From: Candidatus Bipolaricaulota bacterium
GTDB taxonomy: Bacteria > Bipolaricaulota > Bipolaricaulia > UBA7950 > UBA9294
NCBI GenBank assembly: GCA_018817505.1
Contig: JAHITR010000021.1
Location: 1,077 to 65,076, forward strand
DNA length: 64,000 nt
Direction: 5' to 3'
Part shown: positions 7,166 to 54,859 of the stretch, piece by piece
Layout of the letters: every line of letters starts with the position of its first letter
How positions within the stretch are numbered: the first letter of the stretch is position 1
The notes under the pieces: model-generated
What the model saw: the letters and a program-made list of their open reading frames with translations, nothing else
Told to the model about the DNA's origin: nothing
The model's database searches: none
Made by a program: the position numbers and the translations under genes

Positions 7166-10100
7166 TTACTCGTCCTCTGTCCTCGCGATGAGGCCACGTG
7201 CTCGAAATCGAGGGAGCACTGTGCCAGCAATAGGCAGCGTCATTCGATCGCCCAGCTGGAGTTCCTCAGACAGTGTCGCCGTCTGCTGCCCGCGCGGCGG
7301 ATTAATCAATGCGAGTGTTGTGCCAGGCTCTGTGGCTAGCTGATTGACAAGCGCCAATCCGACCTGCACGTCACTGAGGCTTACACAACTGGTGACATGT
7401 CCAATGACGGTTCCAGCACGATCAAGAACCGCGGCACCCGCTTGTACTCGACGCGCACCAGCCTCAATCTCAAATCGAATGAGGGACCGTCTGCGCTCGA
7501 CGTAGTCGGCGATGCATTGGGCTCGACCGATGAAGAAGGGCTTGTGGAGCTTCACATATGAGCCGAATCCAGCTTCAAATGGATTCATCGCGTATGGGCC
7601 GGCCAGTTCATGGCCATAGAGAGGGAGTCCAGCTTCAGTGCGGGTGGAGTCGCGAGAAGCCAGTCCGCACGGAAGCAGTCCATAGGCTTTGCCCACTTCT
7701 AGCAACCGATTCCATAGCCAGACGACGGAAGCGCCACCGACGTAAATCTCGTAGCCTTCTTCTTCTCCCGTGTACCCGGTCCGCGCGATGATCAATTGAT
7801 GCCCCTCGACGTCCATTTCACTGAATTCAGTTCGTTGCAGAGCAGCCAAAGCTCTCTTCTGATCCGCGGACAGCAACTCAGCAAGAATCCTCGGGCTAGC
7901 AGGTCCTTGTAAAGCAATATCTGCGACGCCGCGAGTCTTCTTCAGGTCTGTAATCTGGACTCTTTTGGGGCGACGACTTGCGATTTCTCGATCGATGGCA
8001 TAGATGCCGTCATTCACGCCATTGAGCCACTTCCAATCCTTGCGCTCGTTGGCGGCATTGACAACGACGAGATAGCGATCCCAGGCGCGGCGATAGATGA
8101 AGATGTCGTCGAGAACCTTGCCATCGATGTCCAATAGATACGCATATTGCGACTGGCCATCTTGAAGCCACGAAACATAGCTGGAACAGACCGTATTGAG
8201 GAACGCGGCAGCGTGGGGGCCAGAGATCTGCAATACTCCCATGTGGCCAAGATCATAGAGCCCAGCCGCTTCACGAACAGCTCGATGTTCCTCAAGCGCG
8301 GAGCTATACCAAACAGGCATCTCCCAGCCAGCGAATGGAACCAGTCGAGCCCCCAAATCCTTGTGGGCCTGAACAAGCGGCGTCCGTTCGAGCTCCCCGC
8401 CCTCAGCTTCTTCCCAGAGCCACGGCGTATGGTCGATTGTTCTATGAGCTACGGTGAGTTTCGATTGAGCGACAAAATACGGTTTCTCAAGATTGAATCT
8501 CTCTGGGGATCGAGCATAAACATCATTGATCGAGAGCCCGTTGCTGGATCCGAGAATGGGAATGCTCAGCCACTCCTGTCCGATCGGGGGCACGTCGGCT
8601 TCCGCAAGGATCTCAACCACCGCAGGGCCCTGAACTTTGCGGAATACGTCTCCTTCATCAAATATGATATAGCCATCCGCCAATCCGGATAGCCATTGTC
8701 GTACGATGTCTTCAGATTCAGCTGGAGCGAGAACGAGGAAGTCATCTGCCTCAAGTTGACCAATTACGACCTCAGACAGAAGCATTCCCGCCTCATCAAA
8801 CAAGTAGGTGCGAAGCGAATCCCCATTTTGGAACGACGACAGATCAGAAGGAGTCGCCTCCTCCAGCAGAGCTTGGATCCTACCACCATACATGCGGAAG
8901 ATGGCCCATGAAGATTCTTCATTGGCAAAAGAGGGGGTCTCGGCATAGAGGGTTGGATCAATGCGGGTTATCAATGCGCGAACGTCGCGCTTGGCCTGCT
9001 CAAGAACGGAAACGGCAATCTTGCCACGCGAAAGCGGACTGGAAAGGCCCTGATAAGTGAACGGGCGAATACCGCGCAAAACACGGGCAATGATGCCAGC
9101 GAGCAGTTTCATTTCTGTCTTGCCCATGCCGCGTTGCGTGATCCACGGAGTTCCCAATCGAATGCCGTGGGCATCGGCTGCGCTGGTGTCTCCTGGTAGC
9201 GTGTTTTTGTTGCACACGATGCCTGCCAAGTCGAGAATCCGAGACGCAATCTCACCCATCATTACGAAACCTGTCTCAGACTCGATGGGGCGCAGGTCAA
9301 CGAGCAGCAAATGGGTATTGGTTCCCCCATAGGCCAAGGTCAGGCCTTCGGCCTCAAGCGAGGCAGCAAGGAAGCCTGCATTCTCAACGATGCGGCGCTG
9401 CAGATCCTGGTACTCAGGCTGCTGTGCCAGCTTGAGTGCGACCGCCAGTGCAGCGAATTTATTGACGTGGGGTCCTCCCTGCTGCCCTGGGAAGATGGCG
9501 CTGTCTACGGCTGCAGCAATTTTGGAGTCTGTGGATAGAATGACAGCGCTACGCGGGCCGCAGAGCGTCTTATGAGTGGTGAAATTGACGACATCAGCGA
9601 TGCCAATCGGGTTCGGATATTGCCCCCCGATGATGAGTCCCGCTGTGTGCGCGACATCGGCAAGGAGGATGGCTCCCACAGAGTCAGCGATTTCGCGAAA
9701 CGCATGCCAGTCGGGCTGCCAAGGATAGGAGGTGAAGCCGCCAATGATCATTTTGGGGCGATGCTTCTCAGCAAGCTTGCGAATGGCTTCGTAGTCGAGC
9801 TGTCCCGTATTTGGGTCGACCGCATAGGAAACGATGTTGTATCGCTTGCCAGTAATGTTGAATTCGGATCCGTGTGTCAAGTGTCCGCCTTCAGTCAATG
9901 CCATACCCATGACCGTATCTCCAGGCGAGACAAAGGCATCGTAGACCGCCAGATTGGCCGCTGCTCCGGACAAGGCTTGCACGTTGGCGAAGATGCGCTC
10001 TGCCGGATACTCGTCTGTAGCGAAACATTCAGCAGCGCGGCGACCTGCGAGCGACTCCACGACATCTGCGAATTCGGTGCCTTTGTAGAATCGGCGATCG

Positions 10101-10381
10101 GCATATCGGCGGTAGCTGGCCAGTTGCACGTCCAGTTCGGCCAACTCATCTGGGGACGCGTTCATCATTGCTTTTCGCGGATAGCCTTCTGCATAGACAC
10201 TGGTGAATACTGAGCCTAGTGCTTCTCGAACAGGTTTGGGTGTCAAGCTCTCCGAGGGAATGAGAATGATTTTCTCACGTTGTCGGCGTTCCTCAGCTGC
10301 GATCAAGGCTGCCGTTTGTGAATCGATGTCAAGGATGCATTTGTCTGAATACGGGCTCATGTTGACTTCCATCTCCTTCAT
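7166..10381 (-). CDS. fusion protein: serine hydroxymethyltransferase (GlyA) domain + glycine-cleavage T-protein/aminomethyltransferase (GcvT) domain(s)
   Basis: The N-terminal half has SHMT hallmarks (...[32 protein letters not shown]..., PLP-fold region ...[13 protein letters not shown]...). The C-terminal ~450 aa has GcvT hallmarks (...[42 protein letters not shown]..., ...[15 protein letters not shown]...), with an extra GcvT-like segment between them. It is one uninterrupted ORF. Start chosen at ATG 10379-10381 (MKEMEV...); an alternative ATG 9 nt downstream has an AAGGAG RBS. Confidence 0.8.
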   Translation of the reverse strand: [1071 protein letters not shown]

Positions 10382-11492
10382 ACGGGTCGGGGTGAAGTCT
10401 ACGGGGTAGGTTTCTTCCTTTCCAGCAGAGTTCCGAGAGAAGGTACAGGCCGCCACTGACCAGTGAGTGCCCGCCCAAGAGAATGGGGATGGAGGAATCC
10501 CTAGCTCTCTGCGCGAAGTCAATCCATAGGGGATCGGCCATCTCTGAAATCCGAAACAGGTCGCAGGAAAACCGCTCGTGCGCTGCGGGCAGAACGCCCT
10601 TTCGAGCGAGCAACGGGCGAGAGTCGATAATGGCAGCATCGGCGGAGTTCTCAAGCGCGTGGAAGAAATCGGCGAACCTGCGCTTCTGGAAAAGAGTCGC
10701 CAGCACGGCGTGCTGTCTGTTTGCGTAGGCTTTCATCCCACGGCCTTCGATCATTCCCGCCGTCCGACATGCGACCTGCTGCTCGAACGTCTGCCATGTC
10801 GCCGGATTCACGCGCCCCACCAAATAGACGAGAGCTGTTCGTTCGATAAGCAAGGCAGTCGTCTCCCGGATATTCGGATGGTCGAGCGGCTGGGAAGCGA
10901 GAAAAGACTGCAGGCGCGAGCCGCCGCGATTGGCTTCCTTTAGAAGACATAAATCGATCGGCGTATCTAGGTCGAATTGAGACGCCAACGAGCGTGGGAG
11001 GCTGAAGCATTTCACTCCATGGTCTGAGAGAAGGAACCCGAGCCCGTTGTCTGTTCCCGGAAGCGGGAGTTGAAGCAGAAATGTCGTATCGGACATGACT
11101 GCGAAATCGCATGAGTAGTAGTTGTTGAAGAGGGCGTGGTTCTGATCGCGTTGAGCAAATCGTGCAATATCTGCCAATTGATCTTGGGAGAGAAGCGTGC
11201 CGCTACCGCTGCCGAAGTAGACTACAGCATCTAGTTCGTGGCTGCGGATGATATGCTGGAGTGTCTCGCCGAAATGGAATGGCTCGGTATCTGCAACTGG
11301 ATGGACTGAAGCGCCGAGCGACTCGAAAACTGCAGTGGAATCTTTGGAGCATGCGACAATGGTCGTAGGGACGAGCGTCTTGAGAGACTCCACAAGATCG
11401 CAGGCTGAAGCCTCTCGCGCAGAAGCAACCATACGTTCTATGTCTGACGGCCCCGCGGGCGGGTGGAAGATGACGGCGCCAGTTCGCTTCAT
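10329..11492 (-). CDS. hypothetical protein (~388 aa)
   Basis: Long ORF; start chosen at MKRTGAVIF (ATG at 11490-11492). It overlaps the downstream SHMT-GcvT start by ~50 nt. No confidently nameable motif. Confidence 0.5.
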   Translation of the reverse strand: MKRTGAVIFHPPAGPSDIERMVASAREASACDLVESLKTLVPTTIVACSKDSTAVFESLGASVHPVADTEPFHFGETLQHIIRSHELDAVVYFGSGSGTLLSQDQLADIARFAQRDQNHALFNNYYSCDFAVMSDTTFLLQLPLPGTDNGLGFLLSDHGVKCFSLPRSLASQFDLDTPIDLCLLKEANRGGSRLQSFLASQPLDHPNIRETTALLIERTALVYLVGRVNPATWQTFEQQVACRTAGMIEGRGMKAYANRQHAVLATLFQKRRFADFFHALENSADAAIIDSRPLLARKGVLPAAHERFSCDLFRISEMADPLWIDFAQRARDSSIPILLGGHSLVSGGLYLLSELCWKGRNLPRRLHPDPYEGDGSQHEPVFRQMHP

Positions 11493-11542
11493 GATGTTTG
11501 CATTATCAGTAGACCTCGTCGCGCATGGTCCTCGCACGTCAA

Positions 11543-11582
11543 CAGAAAAAGAAAGCGCCCCAACAGGATTTCTCGTTGGGGC
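11543..11582 (-). terminator. intrinsic terminator downstream of rpsR (stem gccccaac/gttggggc, then U-run on minus strand)
   Basis: 8-bp inverted repeat with 10-nt loop. The plus-strand A-tract aacagaaaaagaaa becomes a U-tract on the minus strand. Confidence 0.55.
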
Positions 11583-11610
11583 ATTACTTCAATCATCAAT
11601 GAATGCCTAG

Positions 11611-11847
11611 TTACCGGCGCAATTTCATGGGCTCGCGTTCTCCTACGTAGGGGAGAAGAGCAATCTTGCGAGCGCGGTTGATCTGCAAGGCAAGGGCGCG
11701 CTGGTGTTTTGCGCACAATCGGGTGGCTCGCTTCGGCAGTATCTTCCCTAGGCGATTCATGAACTGCTTCAGTTCTGCGGGCCGCTTATAGTCGAGCGTG
11801 AGCTTCTGCTCACAGACTCTGCATTTTCTCTTTCTACGATGAAACAT
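11611..11847 (-). CDS. rpsR: 30S ribosomal protein S18
   Basis: ...KLTLDYKRPAELKQFMNRLGKILPKRATRLCAKHQRALALQINRARKIALLPY matches the S18 core. Confidence 0.9.
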   Translation of the reverse strand: MFHRRKRKCRVCEQKLTLDYKRPAELKQFMNRLGKILPKRATRLCAKHQRALALQINRARKIALLPYVGEREPMKLRR

Positions 11848-11849
11848 AC

Positions 11850-12272
11850 TTAGAACGGAACCTCCTCCGTTGTGCTGGCCTCCGGTTGCGAACTTGAAGG
11901 TGGCACCGCAGTCTGGGCTGACGCTTCACCTGATCGAGGAGCACCACCAAGAAACTGGACGGTTGATGCCACGACCTCGACGACTTTCTTGCGCTCGCCT
12001 TCTGCATTTTCAAATGAATCGATGCGTAGGCGTCCTTCAATAGCGACGGAGCGCCCTTTGCTCAAATAGTTCGCACAATTCTCGGCCTGGGATCCCCAGG
12101 TGACAATGGGAACGAACGTTGTTTCTTCTTGCAGTTGCCCGGTTGCGTTCTTGTACTGGCGGTTCACGGCGATGTTGAATTTTGTTCGTGCTGTGCCGCT
12201 TGGCGTGTAACGAAGTTCGGGATCTGCTGTCAAGTTGCCGATCAAAATTACACAATTCAAGCTGGCTGCCAT
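11850..12272 (-). CDS. ssb: single-stranded DNA-binding protein
   Basis: The OB-fold N-terminus (NCVILIGNLTADPELRYTPSGTARTKFNIAVNR...) and acidic C-terminal tail ending ...EEVPF are SSB hallmarks. It lies between rpsF and rpsR, the classic arrangement. Confidence 0.9.
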   Translation of the reverse strand: MAASLNCVILIGNLTADPELRYTPSGTARTKFNIAVNRQYKNATGQLQEETTFVPIVTWGSQAENCANYLSKGRSVAIEGRLRIDSFENAEGERKKVVEVVASTVQFLGGAPRSGEASAQTAVPPSSSQPEASTTEEVPF

Positions 12273-12283
12273 GGCCTCTCCAG

Positions 12284-12568
12284 TTACGCTCGGGAAATGG
12301 TCTGATATCGAAGAATCTCTTCGTCGATATTCAAGCGTTCCTCAATCGTTTTCACATTCTCTGGCGCTAGTTGGAATTCCGCAAGACCGTAGTATGCGTC
12401 CGTGCAATGCCTGATCGGGTAAGCCAGCACGCGCTTTCCCCAATCTTCCACTTTGCCCAACTGACCACCATTGTCTGTGATCAGTGAGTGAATGCGCTCG
12501 ATTTTGGCCGCTCGATCATCATCCGATAGATCCGCGCGGATTACGTATACGATTTCGTACTCTCTCAC
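12284..12568 (-). CDS. rpsF: 30S ribosomal protein S6
   Basis: MREYEIVYVIRADLSDDD...GKVEDWGKRVLAYPI... is the S6 signature. First gene of the rpsF-ssb-rpsR operon. Confidence 0.9.
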   Translation of the reverse strand: MREYEIVYVIRADLSDDDRAAKIERIHSLITDNGGQLGKVEDWGKRVLAYPIRHCTDAYYGLAEFQLAPENVKTIEERLNIDEEILRYQTISRA

Positions 12569-12849
12569 TCTAACACCTCGTCCTTAATCTGCCGGTAACT
12601 TTATCTGGGCGCAGAAGCTAAGTCAAATCGGGGGAATAGCGTCTCAGTCGGCGTTACCCTGTCTCACGTGCAGATAGGATCCGAATGAGCCGTCGACTTC
12701 ATCCCATGATAGAGAAAGTGTACCCAAAGCGCCTTCGGATGTCATCCTTGGGCCCCTTTTGCATCTTTGGCGAAGCCTCTGAGCATGTATGTAATAGTAT
12801 CCGTTTGTAATGCAACCTTCAAGAAAACTGCAAGTAACCTGCAAAAAAC

Positions 12850-12878
12850 TTGACCATCTTTCTATTTTGCCTTATTAG
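12850..12878 (+). promoter_or_regulatory. candidate sigma70-like promoter (TTGACC-N16/17-TTATTAG) upstream of the small-peptide array
   Basis: Sequence pattern only, in the divergent intergenic region between rpsF and the peptide array. Confidence 0.3.
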
Positions 12879-13022
12879 TAGCGAAGTTAGACATAGGCGT
12901 TGGGCGCGGAGAAATTCGGCGATTCCATCGAATTCAAGAGCGGTAGGGGACGTCATTGAGTGCGGAATCAGCCTTGCGCATCGAGAGGTCAAGAAGCGGA
13001 AGGACAAATGGGAGGAAGAAAC

Positions 13023-13175
13023 ATGAAATGGGGCGGATACAACAGAAAAGGAGAAGAGAAAATGAAGAAGCTGTTTGGCGGGAAGGCGATGTACTACTTG
13101 CTGACGATCGCGACATTGATCCTTGTGTTGGCCGAGAACATCAAATGGCGACCGGATCCGCCGACCGGTGGATAG
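13023..13175 (+). CDS. small single-TM peptide, paralog 1 (MKWGGYNRKGEEKMKKLFGGKAMYYLLTIATLILVLAENIKWRPDPPTGG)
   Basis: GGAGGA RBS 6 nt before ATG. It is one of four tandem paralogs, and differences among copies in the hydrophobic core are almost all synonymous. Confidence 0.6.
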   Translation: MKWGGYNRKGEEKMKKLFGGKAMYYLLTIATLILVLAENIKWRPDPPTGG

Positions 13176-13210
13176 ACAGACCAACAAGAATTTGAAAAGG
13201 AGGAAGCGAT

Positions 13211-13363
13211 ATGAAATGGGGCGGATATAACCGAAATGGTGAGAAGAAGATCCGAAAGCTGTTCAGCGGAAGGGCGATGTACTACTTGCTGACGATCGCG
13301 ACATTGATCCTTGTACTGGCTGAGAACATCAAGTGGAGTCCGGATCCGCCGACTGGTGGATAG
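13211..13363 (+). CDS. small single-TM peptide, paralog 2 (MKWGGYNRNGEKKIRKLFSGRAMYYLLTIATLILVLAENIKWSPDPPTGG)
   Basis: AAAGGAGGAAG RBS. The N-terminal charged region diverges, while the TM core and C-terminal PDPPTGG are identical to the other copies. Confidence 0.6.
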   Translation: MKWGGYNRNGEKKIRKLFSGRAMYYLLTIATLILVLAENIKWSPDPPTGG

Positions 13364-13394
13364 AGAAGTCGTAGGCATAGAAGGAGCAACGGCC

Positions 13395-13547
13395 ATGAAA
13401 TGGGGCGGATACAACAAGAAGGGAGAAGAGAAAATGAAGAAGCTGTTTGGCGGGAAGGCGATGTACTACTTGCTGACGATCGCGACATTGATCCTTGTAC
13501 TGGCTGAGAACATCAAATGGCGACCAGATCCACCGACCGGTGGATAG
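13395..13547 (+). CDS. small single-TM peptide, paralog 3
   Basis: AAGGAG RBS; the protein matches copy 1 except for one R-to-K change. Confidence 0.6.
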   Translation: MKWGGYNKKGEEKMKKLFGGKAMYYLLTIATLILVLAENIKWRPDPPTGG

Positions 13548-13578
13548 AGAAGTCGTAGGCATAGAAGGAGTAACGGCC

Positions 13579-13731
13579 ATGAAATGGGGCGGATACAACA
13601 AGAAGGGAGAAGAGAGAATGAAAAAGCTGTTTAGTGGGAAGGCGATGTACTACTTGCTGACGATCGCGACATTGATCCTTGTACTGGCTGAGAACATCAA
13701 ATGGAGTCCGGATCCGCCGACCGGTGGATAG
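13579..13731 (+). CDS. small single-TM peptide, paralog 4
   Basis: AAGGAG RBS; three conservative substitutions relative to copy 3. Confidence 0.6.
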   Translation: MKWGGYNKKGEERMKKLFSGKAMYYLLTIATLILVLAENIKWSPDPPTGG

Positions 13732-14072
13732 TAGGATCGCAGAATTGCTGACGGGAAGCTTCTGGACCAGCGATCTGCTCAATTGAGAATGTGGAGCAGG
13801 GCAAGGTTGTTGTGCTGCCTGCGGAAGCTCGAAGAGTGAAACTGATCCCGCTTTCGGTCACTGCAATACTCATACAGCTGTAACCAGTCGTCATAACAAT
13901 GGGTGATGTCCGCAACAACGATAGATTGTGCTTGATGTATAAGCTGCCCCGAATGAGAAGAAGCACGCTCTTGCAGATGGAATAGGGTTTGGGTATCGAT
14001 CGGATATTGGCGAAGTGCTAGTCGAGGACCAAACTTCACAGTAAGATTGTGCTCTCTGACCTAAGGGGACTG

Positions 14073-15386
14073 ATGAGACGAATGAGTGTTGCTTACGTAT
14101 ATGTTGCGGCTCTGGCGGTGTCAGCCCTGCTATCCCTAGCACACTCAGTTACGCACTGCGCTTTCGCGGGGGGGGGAACAGTCTCCCTTTTTGTAGCGTT
14201 TGTGATATTGGCAGTCCTTGCCGAAGTCTATGCGACACGGGTCCCAGCCTACAAATGGGAAATCTCAAGCTCCATCGCCATCTGCCTTGCATCTGTCTTT
14301 ATCCTTGGCCCGTATCTTGCAGTTATCTCAGTATTCCTTTCTTCTCTCATTTCAGAACTGCTTTTGCGATTGAATTCAGAAAAGCGAGGATCATCCGGGG
14401 TTATTCAAATAGTGTTCAATGTCAGTCAACTTGTGATTACCGTAACATTGGCTGGCCTGTTTCTCAAAGCGTTCAATCGCGAAACGTTGCAGTTGATTCA
14501 TCCCGCAGACATAGGACTTGCTGTCGCAGTCTTCGCCATTTACTTGGTTTCCAATTTGTCCTTCGTAACGGGTGTCATTGCGATAACAGAGAACAAATCA
14601 TTCCTCCAGTCTCTCGGCCGGAGCATCCGGCAGTTTTTCATGCAATACCTGGCTTTGTGCGTATCCGCTCTTCTGTTGACCTCTCTATATACGATCTCAG
14701 TTTGGCACGTCTTCCTGGCCCTGTTCCCGCTTACGTTGGTGCATATCTCCTTTAGGGGATATGTGAAATTGCAGACCGAGGCACGAAACACCTTCGAACG
14801 AATTTCACAATTGCTCGATGCCCGCGATCACTACACGGCCGTTCATTCCGTAGAGGTAGCTGAATTGGCGGTCAGGATTGGACAGGAGATGGGACTCAGT
14901 CAGCGTGAGATTGAGCAGATTGACGTGGGCGCTCGAGTCCACGATATTGGGAAGGTTGCGATTCCGGATTCCATCCTCCTCAAGCCGGGGAAATTGACTG
15001 AAGAAGAGTGGGTCACGATGCGTGAACACCCGGTGACGAGTGCAGAGCTGATTGCCGGAATCGAAATTTATGCGTCCGTCTCCGAGGCCGTTCGGCACGA
15101 GCATGAGCGATGGAACGGAACGGGATATCCTGATGGCTTGAAGGGCGAGCAAATACCTCTGATATCCCGGATTATTGCTGCAGCCGACATCTATAACGCA
15201 CTAACGACGGATCGCCCCTACCGAAAGGCGTTCAGTTTGGAAAAGACGAGACAGATGATTGAGGACATGACTGAGATCGACTTGGATCCGGATGTTGCCT
15301 CGGCACTGATTCGCGTCATTGACGCGATGCCTGCAGAGCCAGCGGTGCCTAGGATAATCCCGACACCCGAGAGCGTGGAGGCGTAG
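14073..15386 (+). CDS. membrane-integral HD-GYP domain c-di-GMP phosphodiesterase (N-terminal polytopic 5-7 TM domain)
   Basis: The C-terminal half carries ...HDIGKVAIPDSIL... and ...HEHERWNGTGYPDGL... (HD and GYP motifs). The N-terminal ~230 aa is strongly hydrophobic. The ATG at 14073 has an AAGGGGA RBS; a GTG at 14049 and an ATG at 14082 are alternatives. A G9 homopolymer lies at 14168-14176. Confidence 0.8.
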   Translation: MRRMSVAYVYVAALAVSALLSLAHSVTHCAFAGGGTVSLFVAFVILAVLAEVYATRVPAYKWEISSSIAICLASVFILGPYLAVISVFLSSLISELLLRLNSEKRGSSGVIQIVFNVSQLVITVTLAGLFLKAFNRETLQLIHPADIGLAVAVFAIYLVSNLSFVTGVIAITENKSFLQSLGRSIRQFFMQYLALCVSALLLTSLYTISVWHVFLALFPLTLVHISFRGYVKLQTEARNTFERISQLLDARDHYTAVHSVEVAELAVRIGQEMGLSQREIEQIDVGARVHDIGKVAIPDSILLKPGKLTEEEWVTMREHPVTSAELIAGIEIYASVSEAVRHEHERWNGTGYPDGLKGEQIPLISRIIAAADIYNALTTDRPYRKAFSLEKTRQMIEDMTEIDLDPDVASALIRVIDAMPAEPAVPRIIPTPESVEA

Positions 15387-15394
15387 CGGTATCT

Positions 15395-15967
15395 ATGTTC
15401 TTCTTGTATGTCATCCCCGTTGGGCTCCTAATCGGTCTTCTTGCCAGAGGAAAGATCGCCAATCTTGGAAAGCTCCCACTGAGGTGGGTGGGCCTGCTGT
15501 TTCCTGCCTTATTGATCCAACTCCTGATCTTCCCTGTGTTTACGTCTGACGCGCTCATCCCGTTTGCGACTGCGCCACTTCATATCCTTTCGTATGCGTT
15601 GCTCGCGGTATGGATCCTCGCCAACTGCCGACTTCTGCCAATCGTTACTCTGGGCTTGGGAGCGGTGTGTAATTTCGCCGTCCTTGCTGCAAATGGCGGA
15701 TTCATGCCCGCATCGGCCAATGCATTGCAACAGGCAGGTCTATCGAATCTTGCCGGGACGCTAACCCGCGAGGGGGCCTACTCCAACCTGGCTCTGATGT
15801 CCGCAGACACGCGATTGAACCTCCTTGGCGACCTCCTCTATGTTCCGAAATGGATTCCTCTCTCTGCAGCCTTTAGTATCGGAGATCTCTTGATCGCCCT
15901 GGCACTTGTCTGGTTGATCGTGAAAGGCATGAGAATCAATGAAAAACGACCTATCGAAGCTGCTTAA
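15395..15967 (+). CDS. polytopic membrane protein of unknown function (DUF5317-like)
   Basis: Six or more hydrophobic segments and no catalytic motifs. It starts 8 nt after the HD-GYP gene and overlaps the next gene by 29 nt. Confidence 0.55.
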   Translation: MFFLYVIPVGLLIGLLARGKIANLGKLPLRWVGLLFPALLIQLLIFPVFTSDALIPFATAPLHILSYALLAVWILANCRLLPIVTLGLGAVCNFAVLAANGGFMPASANALQQAGLSNLAGTLTREGAYSNLALMSADTRLNLLGDLLYVPKWIPLSAAFSIGDLLIALALVWLIVKGMRINEKRPIEAA

Positions 15968-18047
15968 GCCACAGTCTGTAGCTGTTGTTGGAGCCAGCCC
16001 CAACGAGGGCTCTGTTGCGGGCACGATCTTGCAGAATCTGCACTCCTGCGGATTCTCCGGAGACATCTTCCCGGTCAATCCTAAATACGAAACCGTTTTT
16101 GGGTTTGCCTGCTACCCTTCGATCAGCGCACTACCAGACACGACTGACCTTGCCATCTTGGCAATCAACCGAAGCCTGGTTCTCCAAGCAGTTGAAGAGT
16201 GTGGAGAACGGGGCATTCGTCATCTTGTGATTGTTACTGCCGGGTTCAAGGAAGCCGGGGCAGAAGGCGAACGATTGGAGTCGGCATTGCGGGATTTGAT
16301 CGCTCGCTATGATCTGAATGTTGTAGGACCCAATTGCATGGGCATCATTCACCGCTCTGAAGGCATCAAGCTCAATGCTTCTTTCTCTCGCTGGTTCCTT
16401 ACTGGTGGAGGCATCGGATTCATTTCACAAAGCGGATCACTCGGGGAGACGCTCCTGGAGACCTTTGAAGACGCAGGGCTGGGTGTCTCGACCTTCATTA
16501 ATCTAGGCAATCGAGCCGGGTTGACTGAAAACGACTTCTTGCGGTTGCTTGCAGACGACCCTCAGTGTCGAGCGATCTTCTTGTATCTAGAGAGCTTCGC
16601 AGAGCCCCACGAATTTCGCCGAATCCTTGAGTCCATTCATCAAGACAAGCCTGTCGTCGTGCTCAAAGCAGGCAGGACCAAAGCGGGAGCAGCTGCTGTA
16701 GTGTCCCATACAGGCTCGCTGGCCAGCCCAGATGCCATTGTTGATGCCTTCCTTCGCCAGTGTGGGGCCTTGCGTGTGACGACAATCGACGAGGCACTCA
16801 GTGCACTGCGTGTGCTACAGAAGGGAGTTTTGCCTGCAGGAAACCGAGTGGTCATTCTGACCAATGCAGGTGGTGCGGGGATCATAGCTGCCGACGCGTG
16901 TGAGCGCCTGAGCATTGATGTTCCTGCGCTCTCAGATGAAGTCCAGATGAAGCTTCGCGAGTTCCTTCCTCCAGAAGCTGGATACGGCAATCCGGTGGAC
17001 ATGATCGCCACGGCAAGCAGCGAACACTACGAAAAGGCCTTGGAGACAACGCTGCCTTCAGTGGACGCAGCCATTGTTATCTTTAGACCCCCGATGGTTT
17101 ATCACGAGCCTGTGGAGAATGTGGCCGACGGTATCTTGAGGGTTCTCGCGAAGATGCCGACCAAGCCCGTTTTGGTTTGCACGTTGAGTCGCAGCGATAT
17201 GGTGACTCCGCTTGTCAAACGTCTGCAAGAGCAATGGATCCCCAGCTACGTGATGCCCGAGACTGCAGTCAGTGCAGTCGACGTACTGTGTCGCGTGAAG
17301 GCGCTGGAAGTGGAAGCTCAGTCCGCCAATGAGGCTTACTCCACGGCGAATGGCCGGGCGATTGCGGGCCAAATTCTTGAGCAAGCAGCGGCTGAAGGAA
17401 GAACTGGTTTGAGCTTTGGTGAAGGCGCAGAGATTCTGGCTGCCTATGGTCTCTCTGTTTGTCCCTTTGCCTACATTGAGTCACTGGAAGACGGTATTGT
17501 ATTCCTCAAGCAAGCGTGCGGGCCGATCGTTCTCAAGATTGACTCCCCCCAGCTCTTGCATCGATTCGAGGCCAATGCCGTGATCACGGACATTGAAACA
17601 AATGGCGGACTCGTCGAAGCCTTCTTGCAGTTGCGTGAGACAATTGATCACCTTGGAATGGCCGACGCGCGGATTCTTGCGCAGAAGATGTTGGCCGGAC
17701 GAGAGCTAATCATTGGATTGGATCGAGATCCCTCATTTGGGCCGGCCATCATGTTTGGCATTGGCGGAACATTGGTTGAGGCGCTACGCGACGTTTCTTT
17801 CGGTGTGTCGCCTATCTCTCAATCCGAAGCCGAAACGATGATTCGATCGATTCGGGCATTCCCCCTATTGCAGGCGTTTCGCGGACAACCGGCTGTCGAC
17901 CTTGAATCACTTGCGGATATCATCACACGACTGGGTCAATTGGCCACGGACTGCCCGAACATCGCTGAACTGGACCTCAATCCTGTTATCGCGACAACAC
18001 AGGGAACCTACGCCGTGGACATTCTGTTTCGAGTTGCCTCTTCGTAG
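15939..18047 (+). CDS. acetate/acyl-CoA ligase (ADP/NDP-forming), fused alpha-beta subunits (CoA-binding + ligase-CoA + ATP-grasp)
   Basis: The N-terminal CoA-binding Rossmann signature (...PQSVAVVGASPNEGSVAGTI...), ...VGPNCMGII... and a C-terminal ATP-grasp region match the ~700-aa fused architecture. Confidence 0.8.
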   Translation: MKNDLSKLLKPQSVAVVGASPNEGSVAGTILQNLHSCGFSGDIFPVNPKYETVFGFACYPSISALPDTTDLAILAINRSLVLQAVEECGERGIRHLVIVTAGFKEAGAEGERLESALRDLIARYDLNVVGPNCMGIIHRSEGIKLNASFSRWFLTGGGIGFISQSGSLGETLLETFEDAGLGVSTFINLGNRAGLTENDFLRLLADDPQCRAIFLYLESFAEPHEFRRILESIHQDKPVVVLKAGRTKAGAAAVVSHTGSLASPDAIVDAFLRQCGALRVTTIDEALSALRVLQKGVLPAGNRVVILTNAGGAGIIAADACERLSIDVPALSDEVQMKLREFLPPEAGYGNPVDMIATASSEHYEKALETTLPSVDAAIVIFRPPMVYHEPVENVADGILRVLAKMPTKPVLVCTLSRSDMVTPLVKRLQEQWIPSYVMPETAVSAVDVLCRVKALEVEAQSANEAYSTANGRAIAGQILEQAAAEGRTGLSFGEGAEILAAYGLSVCPFAYIESLEDGIVFLKQACGPIVLKIDSPQLLHRFEANAVITDIETNGGLVEAFLQLRETIDHLGMADARILAQKMLAGRELIIGLDRDPSFGPAIMFGIGGTLVEALRDVSFGVSPISQSEAETMIRSIRAFPLLQAFRGQPAVDLESLADIITRLGQLATDCPNIAELDLNPVIATTQGTYAVDILFRVASS

Positions 18048-45876: not shown

Positions 45877-48800
45877 TTACGGAGACACGATCACAGGCAT
45901 ATACACGGCTTGACCCGAACCATAGATGATCCAGAAGCTGTAGGATCCTGTGCTCAAACTGCCAGTGCCAATCTCGAGAGCATAGTGATCATCGCTTTTG
46001 TAGCTTCCTGAGAAAGCATAGGCTGTGTAGTCCTCGGCACCTCCAGCGCCCGAACTGCCCGTGAATCCGGGCCGAACTACGCTGATCCACGGCCAGCCAG
46101 CTACGCGTCGATCCTGCCTTGTCAATGAGAAATCGGCGTGCAGAATCTCGCCGGCGCGGACAGAGGCAGGGACCACGGATGTGATCGCTTGAATCCTTCC
46201 CAGGTCCGGCGAGTTTGTGATTCCTGGTGTCGCCCGAAGCGGATGTCCGGCGGAGTCATCACCTGCAATGACGAGGCCGAAGTTTGTTTGCCAGTTGTCG
46301 GCATTATCTGGTTTGAGTGGGTCAATCCGCTCCATGGAGCCTCTTGTCGTCGTGCTCCCAGCGACCCACCCATTGCGTCCTAGGTTGGCGGCATTGGCGG
46401 TGTCGACCACTTCTCCATATTCATTCACCAGCATCACGATCTCTCCAAGATCTGAGAGATCAAGCGAGAGAGTTCGCTCAACGTCATAGATTTGGTTTGC
46501 CTGTGTGTCCTGAATCGTGTTGTCGGTGCGTCTCTCAAGTACGTAGTACCCACTTTCAGAGGGAGTCGCGTGAGCTGAGATTAACCACGTCGTCTTGTCG
46601 AAGCTCTCAACGCGAACTTCGGCATCCTGTTCCTGGAGTGACTGATCGCAAGCTGCCGATGCAGCGCCAGCCAGCGTGCCTTCTAGCTCAATCACCTTCC
46701 AGATTTGATCTTCAGGCGTCGACGGAAGGTTGCTTCGCCATCGCAGCACCCAGCCAGACAGATCGACGGGGGCGGTTCCCAGGTTGCGCAATTCTATCCA
46801 TTCATCACGCGCATCGGCAGCGGTTCCTGCCCACGCAATCTCGCTGATGATGACTCGTCCCTCGCACGAAGCCGCGTTATCGGCTGCAGCACCGGCTCCG
46901 GCAATAAGTGGGTCAACGCCAATGGTCACGGTCGCTGTGCTCAAGCTCCCACTGTCGTCGGCGATGGTGTACTGGAAGGTGTCGGTCCCAGAGAATCCCT
47001 GGTTGGGTTCGTAGAGAAGCTCACTGCCTCCAATGGCTACGGTCCCGTTCGTCGGCTGCGTGACTGACACGATGACGAGAGGATCTCCATCGGGATCAGA
47101 ATCATTTCCGAGCACGGGGATTGACACAATGGCATCCTCAATGGTTGTAGCGCTGTCATTCTGAGCGATCGGCGCATCATTGACTGGAGCGACTGCTACG
47201 AACACCGTCGACGTGCTTGTCCCACCTCTTCCATCGGAAACCGTATAGGTGAACGTGTCCACGCCGTCAAATCCCGGATCTGGCGTATACACGAGCTGCC
47301 CACTGATTATTTCCACGGTCCCATGGTCAGGCGATGAGACGGATTCAATGGTCAACGGATCCCCGTCGGGATCGGAATCATTAAGAAGGGGAAGAATCGT
47401 CGTAGGATTGCCCTCATCGGTGATTGCCGAGTCGTCTTGAGTGAGTGGGGCATCGTTTACTTCAGCAACGGAGACAGTGACCGTTGCTTGAGACGATCCC
47501 CCATTTCCATCTGACACGGTGTATGTAAACGTGTCAATCCCTTGGTACCCTGGATTGGGGATATAGGACAGGTTCGTCCGGGAGTTGATGACCGTTCCAT
47601 TGGCTGGTTGAGTGTAGGACTCAATTAGCAGGAAGTCGCCATCAGGATCCGAGTCATTGGCGAGAATTGGGATGACAACCAGAACCTCTTCATCCGTACT
47701 GGCCGAATCATTCTGGGCGACAGGCGGGTCATTCAGCATGCTCACCAGAACAGTGACACGAGCCGTGTCCTTCCCGCCCTTTTGATCAGCGACCGTATAG
47801 ACAAAGCTGTCTGTCCCGCTGAATCCAAGATTTGGCGTGTAGACAATATCGGTTCCCGTGTTCACGGCTCTGCCATTTGCCGGTTGTTGGACGGACTCAA
47901 CGACAAGCGCATCGCTGTCAGGATCAGAGTCATTGGACAGCACCAGGATGGTGACAGGTGAGTTCTCTTGCGTCGTCTGTGAGTCGTCTTGAGCGATTGG
48001 CGCGTCGTTCACTGGGAGGACGTTGATCGCGACGGACGCGGTGGATCTGCCTCCATTGCCATCTGAAACCGTGTAGGTGAATGAATCAATCCCCACGTAA
48101 TTAGGGGCAGGAGTATAGATGATACTCGTTCCGTTCGACACGACGGTACCATGAAGTGGCTGTGTCACTGATTGCACGAAAAGCGTGTCAAGATCGGGAT
48201 CGGAGTCATTTGGAAGAACCTGAATCGTAACAGTCTGATCTTCGCCTGTCGTCACGCTGTCATCCAGAGCTACGGGAGGGTCATTGACTGCAGCCACTGC
48301 GATCGTGACTGAGGCAGTTGCCGTCTCGCCACTATTGTCTGAGATCGTGTACTCGAACGTGTCGACGCCGCTGAATCCTGGATTGGGAGTATAGGCCAGA
48401 GAATTCCCGTTGTTCACGACCGTACCATGAACAGGCTGGGTCGAGGATTGAATCGTGAGAGCATCACCGTCTGGGTCAGAGTCGTTTTGTAGAACATCGA
48501 TAGACAAAGCCGCTCCCTCGGTTGTAGATCCCGAATCATCCTGGGCTGAGGGGGCATCGTTGACTGAGGCGACCGTCACGGTGACTGTTGCCGTCGCCGT
48601 CTCACCCTGTCCGTCTGTAATGGTATAGGTGAATGTATCGAGTCCATTGAAGTTCGCATCGGGTGTGTAGGTAACGTAGGTCGTGTTGTTGATCACCGAG
48701 CCATGAGCAGGTTGGGTTACGGATTGAACGGCGAGATCATTGCCATCGGGATCCGAGTCGTTTCCTAGAACCTGAATCGTGGTCGCAGCTCCCTCATTGG

Positions 48801-51800
48801 TCACTCCGGTGTCGTCTTGCGCGACCGGCGGATCGTTGACTGCTGCAACGGCTATGGTGACCGTTGCTGTGGCAATTCCTCCGTGTCCATCAGAAATCGT
48901 GTAGGTAAACGTGTCCGTGCCATTGAATGCATCATCAGGCGTGTAGGCGACATCGAGACCGTTGTTGACAACGATCCCATGGGCTGGCTGGGTAACGGAT
49001 TGAACAATCAGATCATCGCCATCCAGATCGGAATCATTGGCCAGAACATCGATGATCGCCAGAGAGCCTTCGTCCGTGGAATCGGAATCATTTTGTGCGA
49101 CCGGCAGATCATTGACTGCTGTAACCGCTACGGTCACTGTTGCTGAGGCAGTTCCTCCGTTGCCATCCGAGATGATATAGGTGAACACGTCGACCCCATT
49201 GAATTGCGGATCAGGCGTGTAGGAGATGGAGGCTACGTTCTTGGCTGTTAATCCATGCGCAGGTTGTGTCAGAGACTGGATAGACAAGGAGTCTCCATCC
49301 GGGTCGCTGTCATTGGCAAGAACCGCAATGTCGATGGATGTGTCTTCATCCGTGGCTCTCGAATCGTCTTGCGCGATCGGTGGATCATTGACTGCGGCAA
49401 CGGCAATGCTAACGGTGGCTGTGGCCGTGCCGCCGTGCCCATCTGAGATCTCGTAGCTGAACGAGTCTACGCCGTTGAAATCGGCGGCAGGTGTGTAGGT
49501 GACTTCAATGCCGTTGTGTTCTGCGGATCCATGGGAAGGTTGAGTCACTGATTGGACAATCAGACCGTCACCGTCTAGATCGGAATCATTCTCCAGGACG
49601 TTCACGACCACGGGCGCCCCTTCATCTGTCGAATCAGAATCATCTTGTGCTACAGGAGGATCGTTTACTGCTGCGACATTGATCGTGACTGTCGCTGTCG
49701 CTGTCCCACCGTTGCCATCTGATACAGCGTAGGTGAATACATCGACTCCATTGAACTGTGAATCAGGGGTGTACGAGATGGTATCTGCGCTCTTGACTGC
49801 TGATCCGTGCGTAGGCTGTATCAATGACTGGATCGTCAGAATATCGCCATCGGGATCGCTGTCATTGGCAAGCACCGCGATATCGATGGGCGTATCTTCA
49901 TTGGTGGCGATCGAATCGTCTCGCGCGGTCGGCGGATCATTGACTGCCGCGACTGCGATTGTGACCAAAGCCGAGGCTGTTCCCCCATTGCCGTCTGCGA
50001 CGATATAGCTGAATGAATCGACACCATTGAATTCGGGACTAGGTGTGTACGTGACATTCACGCCGTTGTGGCTAACGGATCCATGGGCAGGCTGCGTTGC
50101 CGATTGGATGACTAGGGGGTCGCCGTCCACATCGGAGTCATTGGCTAGGACATCGACGGTGACTGGGATGCCTTCGTCTGTCGCATCTGAGTCATCTTGA
50201 GCCACAGGGGGATCATTCGCTGCGGTGACATCAATGGTGGCGGTTGCAGATGATGTCCCTCCATTGCCGTCAGACACGGTGTACGTGAATACGTCAATCC
50301 CATGGAATTGCGGATCTGGCGTATAGATGATGTTCGATGCGTTCTTGACTGCCGATCCGTGCGTCGGCTGCGTCAGAGACTGGATGACAAGGCTATCGCC
50401 GTCAGGATCATTGTCGTTGGCAAGAACGGCGATATCGATCGGCGTATCTTCATTGGTGGTTCTCGAATCGTCCTCAGCAACGGGCGGATCATTGACGGCA
50501 GTCACTGCGACATGAACCGTGGCTGTGGCTGTCCCTCCGTTTCCATCGGAGATGGTATACGTGAACGAATCGACACCATTGAATCCAGGATCTGGAATGT
50601 ATGAAACGCTGTTGTCGGCATTAATTACGGAACCATTGATGGGAGAGGTAACGGATTCCACAAGCAAGAAATCACCGTCAGGATCGGAATCATTTGAGAT
50701 CACAAAGATGGCTACAAGCGTGTCCTCTTCTGTCGTGGCGCTGTCATCCTGTGCCGTCGGTCGGTCATTGACTGGGTTTACGCGGATTGTCACAATTGCC
50801 GTTTCCGTGCCTCCCTGCCCATCTGAGATTGAGTAGGTCAGGGTGTCGGTTCCGCTGAAGTTCAAACTGGGCGCGTAGGTTAGCGATGTCCCGAGATTCT
50901 CGACGACTCCATGGCTTGGCTGAGTTACGGCTTCGATGAACAGACTGTCGCCATCGGGATCGGTATCATTGGCCAGAACATCTATGGAGATGGGGGTCTC
51001 CTCGTCCGTCGCCGCTTCGTCATTCTCAGCGATCGGTGAATCGTTCTTCGCGATCACTGTGATGGTGACGACCGCAGTGGCCGTCTTATCGCTTCCATCG
51101 GACATGGTATAGGTGAACGTATCCAGTCCGTTGAAGTCGGGATTTGGTGTGTAAACGGCTCGACTTCCCTGTATCACCACGGACCCGTTAACAGGCTGGG
51201 AGACGGATTGCAGGACGAGGGCGTCGCCATCAAGATCGGAGTCATTGGCCAGCACATTGACCGCAACAGGCACGTCTTCCTGCGTGCTACTGCTATCATC
51301 TTGTGCAACGGGGGGATCATTTCTGGGCGTGATGGTGACGTAGGCTGTTGCCGTTGCCTTCCCGCCATGGATATCCCTAGCTGTATACGTGAATTCATCT
51401 TCGCCATTGAAATCCGGTGCTGGAACATAGGTCACGCCGAATCCATGGTTGACTACGTTCCCGTGCAAAGGTTGTAGGACGGATTCCACGGTCAACTCAT
51501 CGCCATCTGGGTCGGTGTCATTGCCAAGCACATCGATGTCTACGGGCGTGTCTTCGTCTGTGACTTCGAAGTCGTCAGTAGCCGAAGGCAGGTCGTTGAC
51601 CTCTGCCACAGCGATGGCTACCAAGGCCACGGACGTTCCTCCGTTGCCATCTGTAAGTGTGTATGTGAACGAATCGATGCCATGGAAGTCAGGATCTGGG
51701 GAATACGTTACGTTGGATCCATTGGTGGTCGACGCGCCGTGGCTAGGCTGAGACACGGATTGGACTGCGAGGCCGTCGCCATCGGGATCTGAGTCATTGT

Positions 51801-54396: not shown

Positions 54397-54859
54397 GGGT
54401 TGATGCCTCCTCGAGAAACGCGATTAACCTTCAAATGACTTACATAGCAAAGAATGCTGGATGACGATCCAGCCATACAGGATGGTTGTATCCACATAGC
54501 CCAGTGTTTCTTCATCTCAAACCGCCTCCTTGGTGGAGGCCGGCAACCTGCTACCTCGAACGATCCAGTCCTCCTGGTTCGAGGCCATGGCTTTGCGTCC
54601 CGCTCTCGCGAGCGGTTTGCCTTTTTCAGCCATACATGAGCGAAGCTCGATAATATGATTATGCCTCGACTGTAGTTGGTCTAGCGAAGCAGTGGCATGG
54701 CTTCCAGTACATCGACCATACATTGTATCCGATGAGACAATCAAACCCAATTCTGGAATGGGATATCGCAGTTTTGTGGCGACGCGGCAGCAGCCGTGCA
54801 AGTGATTGCCAATAGAGAGTCTGGCTGTACACTGGAGGTTGCAGAAAGGAGGCGGCGCG

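Follow-up and report, generated by a model that had tools for sequence, protein, structure and literature searches.

The Peptide Gene Array and Its Setting

The DNA considered in this study is a stretch of 64,000 nucleotides (henceforth the window) from contig JAHITR010000021.1 of a Candidatus Bipolaricaulota bacterium (GenBank assembly GCA_018817505.1), and all coordinates are counted from its first nucleotide. The subject is a tandem array of four small genes on the plus strand, between 13023 and 13731, considered together with two of the genes that follow it, one for a membrane protein with an HD-GYP domain and one for a protein of the family DUF5317. A preliminary description of the array, made from the sequence alone, preceded this analysis, and I take up its claims where the results bear on them.

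The array consists of four head-to-tail open reading frames (ORFs), each of 50 codons plus a stop. Their ATG codons lie at 13023, 13211, 13395, and 13579, in the steps of 188, 184, and 184 nt given in the preliminary description, and each has its own Shine-Dalgarno (SD) sequence, as was also claimed, of the GGAGG type and 7 to 8 nt upstream. Copy 1 (13010..13175) comprises the SD GGGAGG at 13010-13015 and an ORF at 13023-13175, the 50-amino-acid (aa) product of which is MKWGGYNRKGEEKMKKLFGGKAMYYLLTIATLILVLAENIKWRPDPPTGG (GenBank KKG90_01475 / MBU1048669.1). Copy 2 (13198..13363; SD AGGAGG at 13198-13203; ORF at 13211-13363, 50 aa) is the most divergent, with 86% identity to copy 1, and has the same sequence as P0001 / KKG90_01480. 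Copy 3 (13381..13547; SD AAGGAG at 13381-13386; ORF at 13395-13547, 50 aa) and copy 4 (13565..13731; SD AAGGAG at 13565-13570; ORF at 13579-13731, 50 aa) are KKG90_01485 and 01490, in one order or the other. Each of the four thus has an existing GenBank entry as a hypothetical protein, in a metagenome-assembled genome (MAG) of Candidatus Bipolaricaulota. Tandem Repeats Finder describes the array as 3.8 copies of a period of 184 (86% matches, score 1034), the sole sizeable tandem repeat of the window.

Residues A22 to W42 and the tail PDPPTGG are the same in all four copies, with R or S at position 43 between them. The invariance of the tail is therefore as first described, while the invariant core comes to 21 residues, not 23, and the consensus offered earlier is broadly right except that it overlooked K13R in copy 4. 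The spacers between the copies measure 35, 31, and 31 nt; those of copies 2 to 4, said to be identical, differ by one base. All four copies carry the tail PDPPTGG, which has no counterpart in other genomes, and this indicates concerted evolution.

The array is divergent from rpsF-ssb, and on its own strand it is followed by the HD-GYP gene, the DUF5317 gene, and a gene for an ADP-forming acetyl-CoA synthetase. The HD-GYP protein (14049..15386, plus strand) is predicted to have seven transmembrane (TM) segments, at residues from about 12 to 235, in a MASE9-like arrangement, and then a cytoplasmic HD-GYP domain. It matches Pfam HD_5 with an E-value of 1.8e-36 and has the motifs HDIGK ... HEHERWNGTGYPDGL, which by the pattern HD...HHE...GYP make it a predicted phosphodiesterase of cyclic diguanosine monophosphate (c-di-GMP). 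The DUF5317 protein (15395..15967, plus strand; 190 aa, about 5 TM segments) matches Pfam PF17248 at 109.6 bits against a cut-off of 25. Its invariant residues are Q42, S66, N93, N100-G-G102-x-x-P105, N131, D146, and S161-x-G163-D164, and no structural relative of its fold was found.

The seven segments of the HD-GYP protein come from a hydropathy scan. Compared with the MASE9 model (PF20972), its N-terminus scores 20.9 bits, below the cut-off of 24.3; the homologues L124 and L062 (labels beginning with L denote the loci fetched for comparison) fall just below it as well, while L040/L041 and an orthologue in a MAG labelled "Firmicutes bacterium" lie above. Conserved buried polar residues in the 7-TM domain of the window are E59, E103, R107, N124, Q127, N169, and Q199. 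In this it is like the known proteins that join MASE9 to HD-GYP (TM1467 of T. maritima, HdgA of S. venezuelae), in which a 7-TM domain having a polar membrane core is combined with HD-GYP, according to Galperin and Chou (bioRxiv 10.1101/2021.11.05.467447). They define MASE9 from TM1467, state that it has no known ligand, and, arguing from the shortness of its loops and from the polar residues buried in it, propose that the ligand is intramembrane; by a term search, their paper does not use the name DUF5317, and no small ORF partner appears in the passages so matched.

The ORFs as Genes

The copies were compared pairwise by the Nei-Gojobori method, and the ratio of nonsynonymous to synonymous differences per site (pN/pS) was computed for all six frames. 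The corresponding ratio of substitution rates (dN/dS) between copies is 0.03-0.16, and 18 of the 28 variable sites fall at codon position 3. Copy 3 differs from copy 1 by R8K and seven synonymous changes, which agrees with the earlier count. Of the six, plus-strand frame 0 alone combines an uninterrupted reading frame with constraint (pN/pS 0.15). For the antisense frame left open across the repeat the ratio is 1.24, and the second frame with a low ratio, the codon-aligned antisense, is interrupted by stops. The four ORFs are thus confirmed as real genes under purifying selection, as the preliminary description had argued, and a noncoding repeat is ruled out by the frame-specific ratios. Nor did the repeat match a known noncoding RNA, a possibility that had been raised, for noncoding elements at large, as one that would tell against translation: Rfam gives no RNA family in the array, either in an E-value search of 11500-15000 or in a search of the whole window at gathering thresholds.

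The product has a single TM segment by hydropathy scan, with a hydrophobic stretch of 16-18 residues. The tail before it holds seven K/R against two D/E, which points to an orientation with the N-terminus inside and the C-terminus outside. AlphaFold2, given the family alignment, predicts with moderate confidence (pLDDT 76) a short helix at residues 8-17 and a long one at 20-41. Both methods agree with the lysine-rich N-terminal tail, single TM helix, and short C-terminal tail first described. The window copies have no match in Pfam or NCBIfam at E ≤ 10, and none in PHROG or PADLOC; the best sequence match in the PDB has an E-value of 1.2. The peptide accordingly matches no curated protein family and no solved structure, and the family, which the earlier reader had failed to recognise, is one that the curated libraries do not model. 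The same holds for ten of the shorter relatives introduced below, which have no Pfam match and a single insignificant one in NCBIfam (FliL, E 0.11, 12.3 bits against a cut-off of 131). A literature search on DUF5317, sequences of the MKWGG... type, small proteins of Bipolaricaulota, and HD-GYP or MASE9 proteins with a small protein partner found nothing relevant.

Homologues within Bipolaricaulota

A word-indexed search for homologues returned 63 clusters, and those with a named source are from Bipolaricaulota. A HMMER profile search over 1.84 billion representatives gave just 29 matches, of 31-81 aa. Among 116 distinct sequences of the long form, that of the window, nearly every position is conserved: M1, K2, W3, K41, W42, and P44 are near-invariant, only A, G, or S is found at position 37, and position 35 is taken by L, V, or T. 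In related loci the peptide is 57-84% identical to that of the window, compared with 62-93% for ribosomal protein S6.

Thirty related genome loci fetched from Bipolaricaulota, all with the array at the same syntenic site, hold 1-5 tandem copies, the number five also being found on a divergent metagenome contig (L033). Copies within one genome are often identical, which indicates concerted evolution, and some genomes have a short form of 45-48 aa beside a long form with a 4-residue insert. The assembled copy numbers are minimum values, because contigs break or carry gaps inside the arrays: breaks occur within the array in at least five MAGs (L005/L007, L009/L014, L010/L016, L018/L004, and L022/L030). 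Runs of N, whether scaffold gaps or masking, fall exactly in the region of the peptide genes in L041 (about 230-400) and, upstream of the listed copy, in L021 and L027; they are consistent with repeats beyond the resolution of short reads.

Decayed copies that have lost the TM segment or the KW end, or are truncated (e.g., ...YYLLTALMLAESTEQRPEGRG), are present in L006 (10415-10549), L011 (521-613 and 1220-1354), and L027 (3451-3534), and suggest a turnover by birth and death within the arrays. A solo copy lies at 2965-3102 of L012, a 3.6-kb contig of the same MAG as L005 and L007, where it follows glycosyltransferase-like and esterase-like ORFs and has neither rpsF nor HD-GYP around it. L012 is either a second locus or a variant of assembly or strain.

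Linkage to the HD-GYP and DUF5317 Genes

The order array, HD-GYP, DUF5317 is present in all 22 of the related loci that have downstream DNA. The preliminary description had proposed that homologues be collected with their copy numbers and neighbours, and the outcome is 1-5 copies with the HD-GYP gene directly downstream, on the same strand, wherever a locus has downstream DNA. Gene order among close relatives proves little by itself, because about 6 kb on both sides of the array are syntenic in them too. Whether there is a functional linkage rather than a general conservation of gene order is decided only by divergent loci, both those of the next section and L031, L033/L034, and L035 to L039. 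In L031, L033/L034, L036, L037, and L039 the flanking genes are wholly different from those of the window; in L035 and L038 rpsF-ssb is kept upstream. All of them have the peptide gene or genes directly 5' to, and on the same strand as, a gene for an HD_5/HD protein of about 300-445 aa, which is usually followed by DUF5317 (e.g., in L031, L037, and L039). The linkage of peptide to HD-GYP thus goes beyond general synteny, since divergent members keep it amid different flanks; at least four other, unrelated neighbourhoods show it too.

The acetyl-CoA synthetase gene of the window (15939-18047, plus strand) overlaps the end of the DUF5317 gene by 29 nt. It follows DUF5317 in close relatives as well and is absent from the divergent loci L031, L035, and L037 to L039; it looks like lineage synteny, not a part of the module.

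Relatives beyond Bipolaricaulota

In the "Firmicutes" MAG, DUF5317 homologues follow a bona fide MASE9-HD-GYP gene, and within 300 nt before this pair lies a 26-aa ORF, MKWRILYYITVIASFLIASGAHHKWR, which has the design MKW...TM...KW but no cytoplasmic tail. In another lineage a 51-aa member precedes two HD-GYP genes and DUF5317 (L042), and a 32-aa member is found in L124-126.

In addition, 80 diverse metagenome loci with DUF5317 were fetched and their small ORFs searched with a profile hidden Markov model (HMM) of the peptide. Most of these loci have, on the strand of DUF5317, ORFs of 26-35 aa with a basic N-terminal end, one hydrophobic helix, and a C-terminal (G/A)A(G/x)x(K/R)W with 0-4 residues after it. 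MKTVRQTVISLMVLAAFMLVLAAPFRWW, MKRTFARLSWALTVLASLALTVGAGMRWDW, and MTRLVAKSKFMYGFLLIVALVAASGAGVKWDW are examples, and two different paralogues often stand side by side. A strict version of the motif has 42 matches in 39 of the loci on the DUF5317 strand and none on the opposite strand, as compared with 0-4 (mean about 0.7) in each of 20 shuffles of all the loci; a rule-based count gave 45 vs. 2. Roseiflexaceae (Chloroflexota) is the sole further lineage named in the cluster look-ups, with one cluster. Three of nine mini-forms looked up are absent from the protein collection as exact sequences, and some members are there only as unnamed hypothetical proteins.

The layouts fall into four types. 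In type A, that of the window, the peptide gene or genes are followed by the 7-TM-HD-GYP gene and then DUF5317. In type B, a 7-TM-GAF-GGDEF-EAL gene comes first, then DUF5317, then the peptide gene or genes; in type C, the order is peptide, DUF5317, GAF-GAF-GGDEF; and in type D, it is HD-GYP, DUF5317, peptide. At their N-termini the type B enzymes can be aligned with the entire length of an HMM built from the 7-TM domain of Bipolaricaulota (E-values of 1e-4 to 1e-8 in a small search). By my own reading of the loci, all those of type A with at least 250 nt upstream of HD-GYP have a peptide, as do nearly all those of types B and C with enough flank. The partner enzymes are always c-di-GMP enzymes (HD-GYP, GAF-GGDEF-EAL, or GAF-GGDEF). 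What recurs, then, is a set consisting of a mini-protein, DUF5317, and a c-di-GMP enzyme, usually with a MASE9-like membrane domain.

I propose to call the family the DUF5317-associated (K/R)W-tail mini-proteins. It comprises proteins of 26-55 aa encoded on the DUF5317 strand that have a basic N-terminal end, one hydrophobic helix of 16-20 residues, and, at the C-terminus, small-small-x-x-(K/R)-W with 0-8 further residues. The window copies, which end in LA-E-N-I-K-W plus 8 residues, are its Bipolaricaulota form, with a longer N-terminus and the motif reading AENIKW. The family is widespread and unannotated, and the three-gene c-di-GMP module is previously undescribed.

Signals for Expression and c-di-GMP Elsewhere in the Window

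A candidate promoter of the sigma-70 type precedes the array at 12850..12878 (plus strand), with the -35 element TTGACC at 12850-12855, a 17-nt spacer, and the -10 element TATTAG at 12873-12878; a conserved TGCAA..A-rich element comes before it. In an alignment, the block AACTTGACC-17 nt-CCTAT(T/A)A is kept before the first peptide gene in L001, L002 (where the -35 is TTGATC), L003, L006, L017, L020, L022, and L029. A scan by consensus did not list this site, because its -10 has a final G. The conservation of the block suggests that 12850-12878 may act as the promoter of the array.

A weak hairpin (13735..13779, plus strand; -17.5 kcal/mol, no U-tract) lies just after copy 4 and would be a possible partial stop of transcription between the peptide genes and HD-GYP. 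The spacer 13725-14060 as a whole folds no better than its shuffles (z = 0.31). Much clearer terminator-like hairpins stand at this position in L031, L036, L020, L042, L037, L027, and L040, the first four with U-tracts. The layout suggests that the peptide message may be more abundant than that of the enzyme.

At some distance from the array, on the minus strand, there is a c-di-GMP-I riboswitch (54539-54631; Rfam RF01051, 54.5 bits against a gathering score of 35), about 140 nt upstream of an ORF of 2839 aa (45877-54396, minus strand). The product of the latter contains many repeats of about 95 residues, of the type "...VNDPPVAQDDS...TxxxxPVxIxVLxNDSDPDGD...", and looks like a giant surface adhesin. 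Divergent from this unit is a gene (55320-56996, plus strand) for a 558-aa protein in the translation of which a PAS-like N-terminus, a GGDEF motif (RLGGDEFAVL), and an EAL-type motif (LDDFGKGFSS) can be read; it would be the window's second c-di-GMP enzyme. Since the window holds both the riboswitch and the GGDEF-EAL gene, the organism appears to use c-di-GMP, and the adhesin-like gene behind the riboswitch could plausibly be what the HD-GYP module controls downstream.

Other Genes Near the Array

Two other genes near the array deserve mention. A single ORF of 1162 aa (7166-10654, minus strand) encodes serine hydroxymethyltransferase (SHMT) joined to the T-protein of the glycine-cleavage system (GCV_T); both are folate-dependent C1 enzymes, and to find them fused is unusual. 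The fusion is kept in all the related loci, including L035, where it is a single gene call of 1099 aa. Downstream of the rpsF-ssb operon is an ORF of 402 aa (10329-11537, minus strand), with no match in Pfam, that occurs in every related locus at 42-71% identity (in L035 as a call of 368 aa, likewise without a Pfam match).

Possible Roles of the Peptide

The reading I favour, at a probability of about 45%, is that the peptide is an intact membrane mini-protein, the dedicated third part of a c-di-GMP module that also contains DUF5317 and the 7-TM HD-GYP protein. The four ORFs would give rise to an abundant single-pass protein, with its N-terminus in the cytoplasm and its C-terminus outside, that has as its partners in the bilayer both DUF5317 and the MASE9-like 7-TM domain of the HD-GYP phosphodiesterase encoded next to it. 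The intact mini-protein would be the intramembrane partner of the MASE9-like domain and, together with DUF5317, would set the activity of the c-di-GMP enzyme. The two to five tandem copies, the strong SDs, and the hairpin before the enzyme gene would make the peptide far more plentiful than the enzyme.

This reading starts from what was observed above: coding, purifying selection, features of a topology type, the breadth of the family, and strict linkage. From these I infer a physical interaction, a direction of regulation, and an effect on c-di-GMP. Long and mini forms alike have a K-W pair at each end of the helix (MKW...KW), where these pairs may be interface anchors, and the cytoplasmic N-terminal tail of 21 residues is very strongly conserved in Bipolaricaulota. 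Both features favour an intact helix over a cleaved leader, as does the published proposal that the ligand of MASE9 is bound inside the membrane. The signs of c-di-GMP use elsewhere in the window also speak for the reading.

There are precedents of this kind. MgrB and SafA (with PhoQ), AcrZ (with AcrB), KdpF, and CydX are single-pass peptides of 30-50 aa that act by helix-helix contact in the bilayer. The peptides of the window are like them in size, in their predicted single crossing of the membrane, and in that the gene adjoins, or is co-regulated with, that of a membrane protein partner. They differ in being unrelated in sequence, with a (G/A)A(G/x)x(K/R)W signature of their own, in having DUF5317 and a c-di-GMP enzyme, itself with a MASE9-like 7-TM domain, for proposed partners, and in occurring as two to five tandem copies. 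By analogy, the systems closest in kind would be either such small modulators of membrane proteins (of the MgrB-PhoQ type) or the precursors of peptide pheromones (AgrD, SHP/ComS), which are likewise unrelated in sequence.

The preliminary description had offered a small membrane regulatory peptide as one of two likenesses, and the conserved c-di-GMP context speaks for it. Its remark that no maturation enzymes are adjacent is right as regards the known enzymes for ribosomally synthesized and post-translationally modified peptides, but it missed the conserved unit with the 7-TM HD-GYP and DUF5317 genes.

Several points weigh against an intact third component. All the genomes compared are MAGs or metagenome contigs. 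Neither DUF5317 nor the 7-TM domain is strictly needed in cis, because L033 (with its five copies) and L036 have the peptide before HD-GYP with no DUF5317 called downstream, and type C enzymes are without the 7-TM domain. Between peptides with E38 and those of the classes without it, no covarying column was found in the 7-TM domain of HD-GYP, and conservation along the TM helix has no one-sided (100 degree) periodicity, the observed power being reached by 1002 of 2000 shuffles. Four to five copies with an apparent attenuator are odd for a regulatory subunit of a low-abundance enzyme, and that layout fits a secreted or structural product better. Finally, a hydrophobic stretch of 16-18 residues followed by small residues also fits a cleavable signal-like sequence.

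The last two points lead to the chief rival, an exported signal, a reading I consider doubtful but worth setting out. The hydrophobic part would be a signal or leader. Signal peptidase, or else DUF5317 in the role of an intramembrane processing enzyme, would cut after the small residue at position 37 and free a C-terminal (K/R)W peptide of 6-13 residues (ENIKWRPDPPTGG in the window). This peptide would then be perceived, on the outer side, by the 7-TM domain of the c-di-GMP enzyme, in a quorum circuit like those of agr or SHP with c-di-GMP as output. Multiple precursor genes with strong SDs and terminators are the usual layout for secreted peptides, and the window and its relatives have tandem near-identical genes, strong SDs, and terminator-like hairpins before the enzyme genes. 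The small residue always found at position 37 and the L, V, or T at position 35 fit the -3/-1 rule for signal peptidase I, and the hydrophobic stretch is just 16-18 residues long. Beyond the fixed xxKW the tail varies by lineage, as pherotypes do; the ends RWW, RWDW, and KWDW resemble the C-terminal WW motif carried by ComS/XIP pheromones; and in DUF5317 polar residues (N, D, S, and Q) are invariant within a membrane fold that has no known relative.

Against this, the N-terminal 21 residues, above all M-K-W, are as conserved as the C-terminus, which is atypical for the n-region of a signal peptide, and conservation runs through the whole TM segment, beyond the part that would be mature. In the class that ends LAAPFRWW, a proline after the small residues restricts the sites open to signal peptidase. 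Pheromone precursors proper (AgrD, which goes with AgrB and AgrC; SHP; ComS/XIP; the Phr peptides) are similar in being short ORFs whose products have a basic N-terminal end, then a hydrophobic stretch, and a conserved motif, often with Trp, as their very last residues; their genes, too, neighbour those for a membrane receptor and for a small protein that crosses the membrane several times. They differ in that the N-terminus and TM segment of the window peptides are conserved as much as the C-terminus and that a c-di-GMP enzyme takes the place of a histidine kinase or Rgg regulator as output. Neither the neighbours of the array in the window nor the divergent loci include AgrB or HATPase domains, and no gene for AgrB, Eep, PptAB, Opp, or an ATP-binding cassette exporter is linked in either. 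The more specific proposal, that the peptides are precursors of a secreted (K/R)W signal with DUF5317 as processing or exporting factor and the MASE9-type 7-TM domain as sensor, I regard as unlikely.

A third possibility separates the peptide from the enzyme: it would be a small subunit of a DUF5317 complex (a channel, transporter, or enzyme), in the manner of KdpF, CydX, or AcrZ, and the c-di-GMP enzyme only a co-regulated neighbour or a regulator. Throughout the 80 loci retrieved by DUF5317, that gene and the peptide are the constant pair while the enzyme varies, and is without a 7-TM domain in type C; in types B, C, and D the peptide genes abut DUF5317 directly. In type A, however, the enzyme gene stands between the two, the peptides of L033/L034 and L036 lie beside HD-GYP with no adjacent DUF5317 called, and four to five tandem copies are rare for stoichiometric subunits. 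On balance such a subunit seems rather improbable.

Could the peptide act in cis, as a leader in the manner of TnaC, SecM, or MifM that stalls at K-W-x-P and thereby controls the downstream HD-GYP gene? The motif K41-W42-x-P44 is invariant or nearly so in the long form, and in many homologues the stop codon follows it at once or soon after (KWHP*, KWSP*, KWRPG*), and in the window the peptide genes lie 5' to the enzyme gene with a hairpin in between. Arrest leaders are always upstream in cis, whereas in types B and D the peptide genes are at the 3' end of the unit, downstream of DUF5317. Other points are hard to reconcile with stalling: many family members lack the proline (...KWDW, ...RWW), selection extends over the whole sequence, TM segment included, and that segment would presumably still be in the ribosomal exit tunnel at the stall, leaving no sensing of insertion force. 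I know of no precedent for four tandem leaders. The idea seems to me very improbable, and a purely cis-acting leader is excluded as the conserved role, given that the peptide gene can sit at the 3' end of the unit.

The other likeness drawn in the preliminary description, to type I toxins (autonomous membrane-damaging peptides, each repressed by an antisense RNA), is scarcely credible: the size below 60 aa, the single hydrophobic helix with charged ends and a lysine-rich tail, and the tandem multiplicity do recall Fst, TisB, Ldr, Ibs, and BsrG, some of which occur in tandem loci (ldr, ibs/sib), but the spacers of 31-35 nt hold an SD only and leave no room for separate promoters, no minus-strand promoter-like site was found within 12990-13745 (by a consensus scan, which is weak evidence), Rfam gives no cognate antisense or overlapping small RNA, PADLOC and PHROG give no match, and the genes keep a single syntenic position in related loci, are vertically conserved to a degree comparable with ribosomal protein S6 (57-84% vs. 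62-93%), and are operonic with, and linked across phyla to, signalling genes.

Implications

If the peptides were after all precursors of a secreted signal, they would constitute an unrecognised form of cell-cell signalling by peptides wired to the turnover of c-di-GMP, with the lineage-specific tails as pherotypes, in Bipolaricaulota, Chloroflexota, the lineage labelled "Firmicutes", and many bacteria of soil and sediment. As an intact component of the module, the mini-protein is a candidate partner for two orphans of second-messenger signalling in bacteria, the MASE9-type sensor domain, which has no known ligand, and DUF5317, likewise without an assigned function and of a fold without a solved relative. 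If the peptide does control the HD-GYP, GGDEF, or EAL enzymes encoded beside it, then what these enzymes sense, and whether it is a peptide of the cell's own making, would become a testable question.

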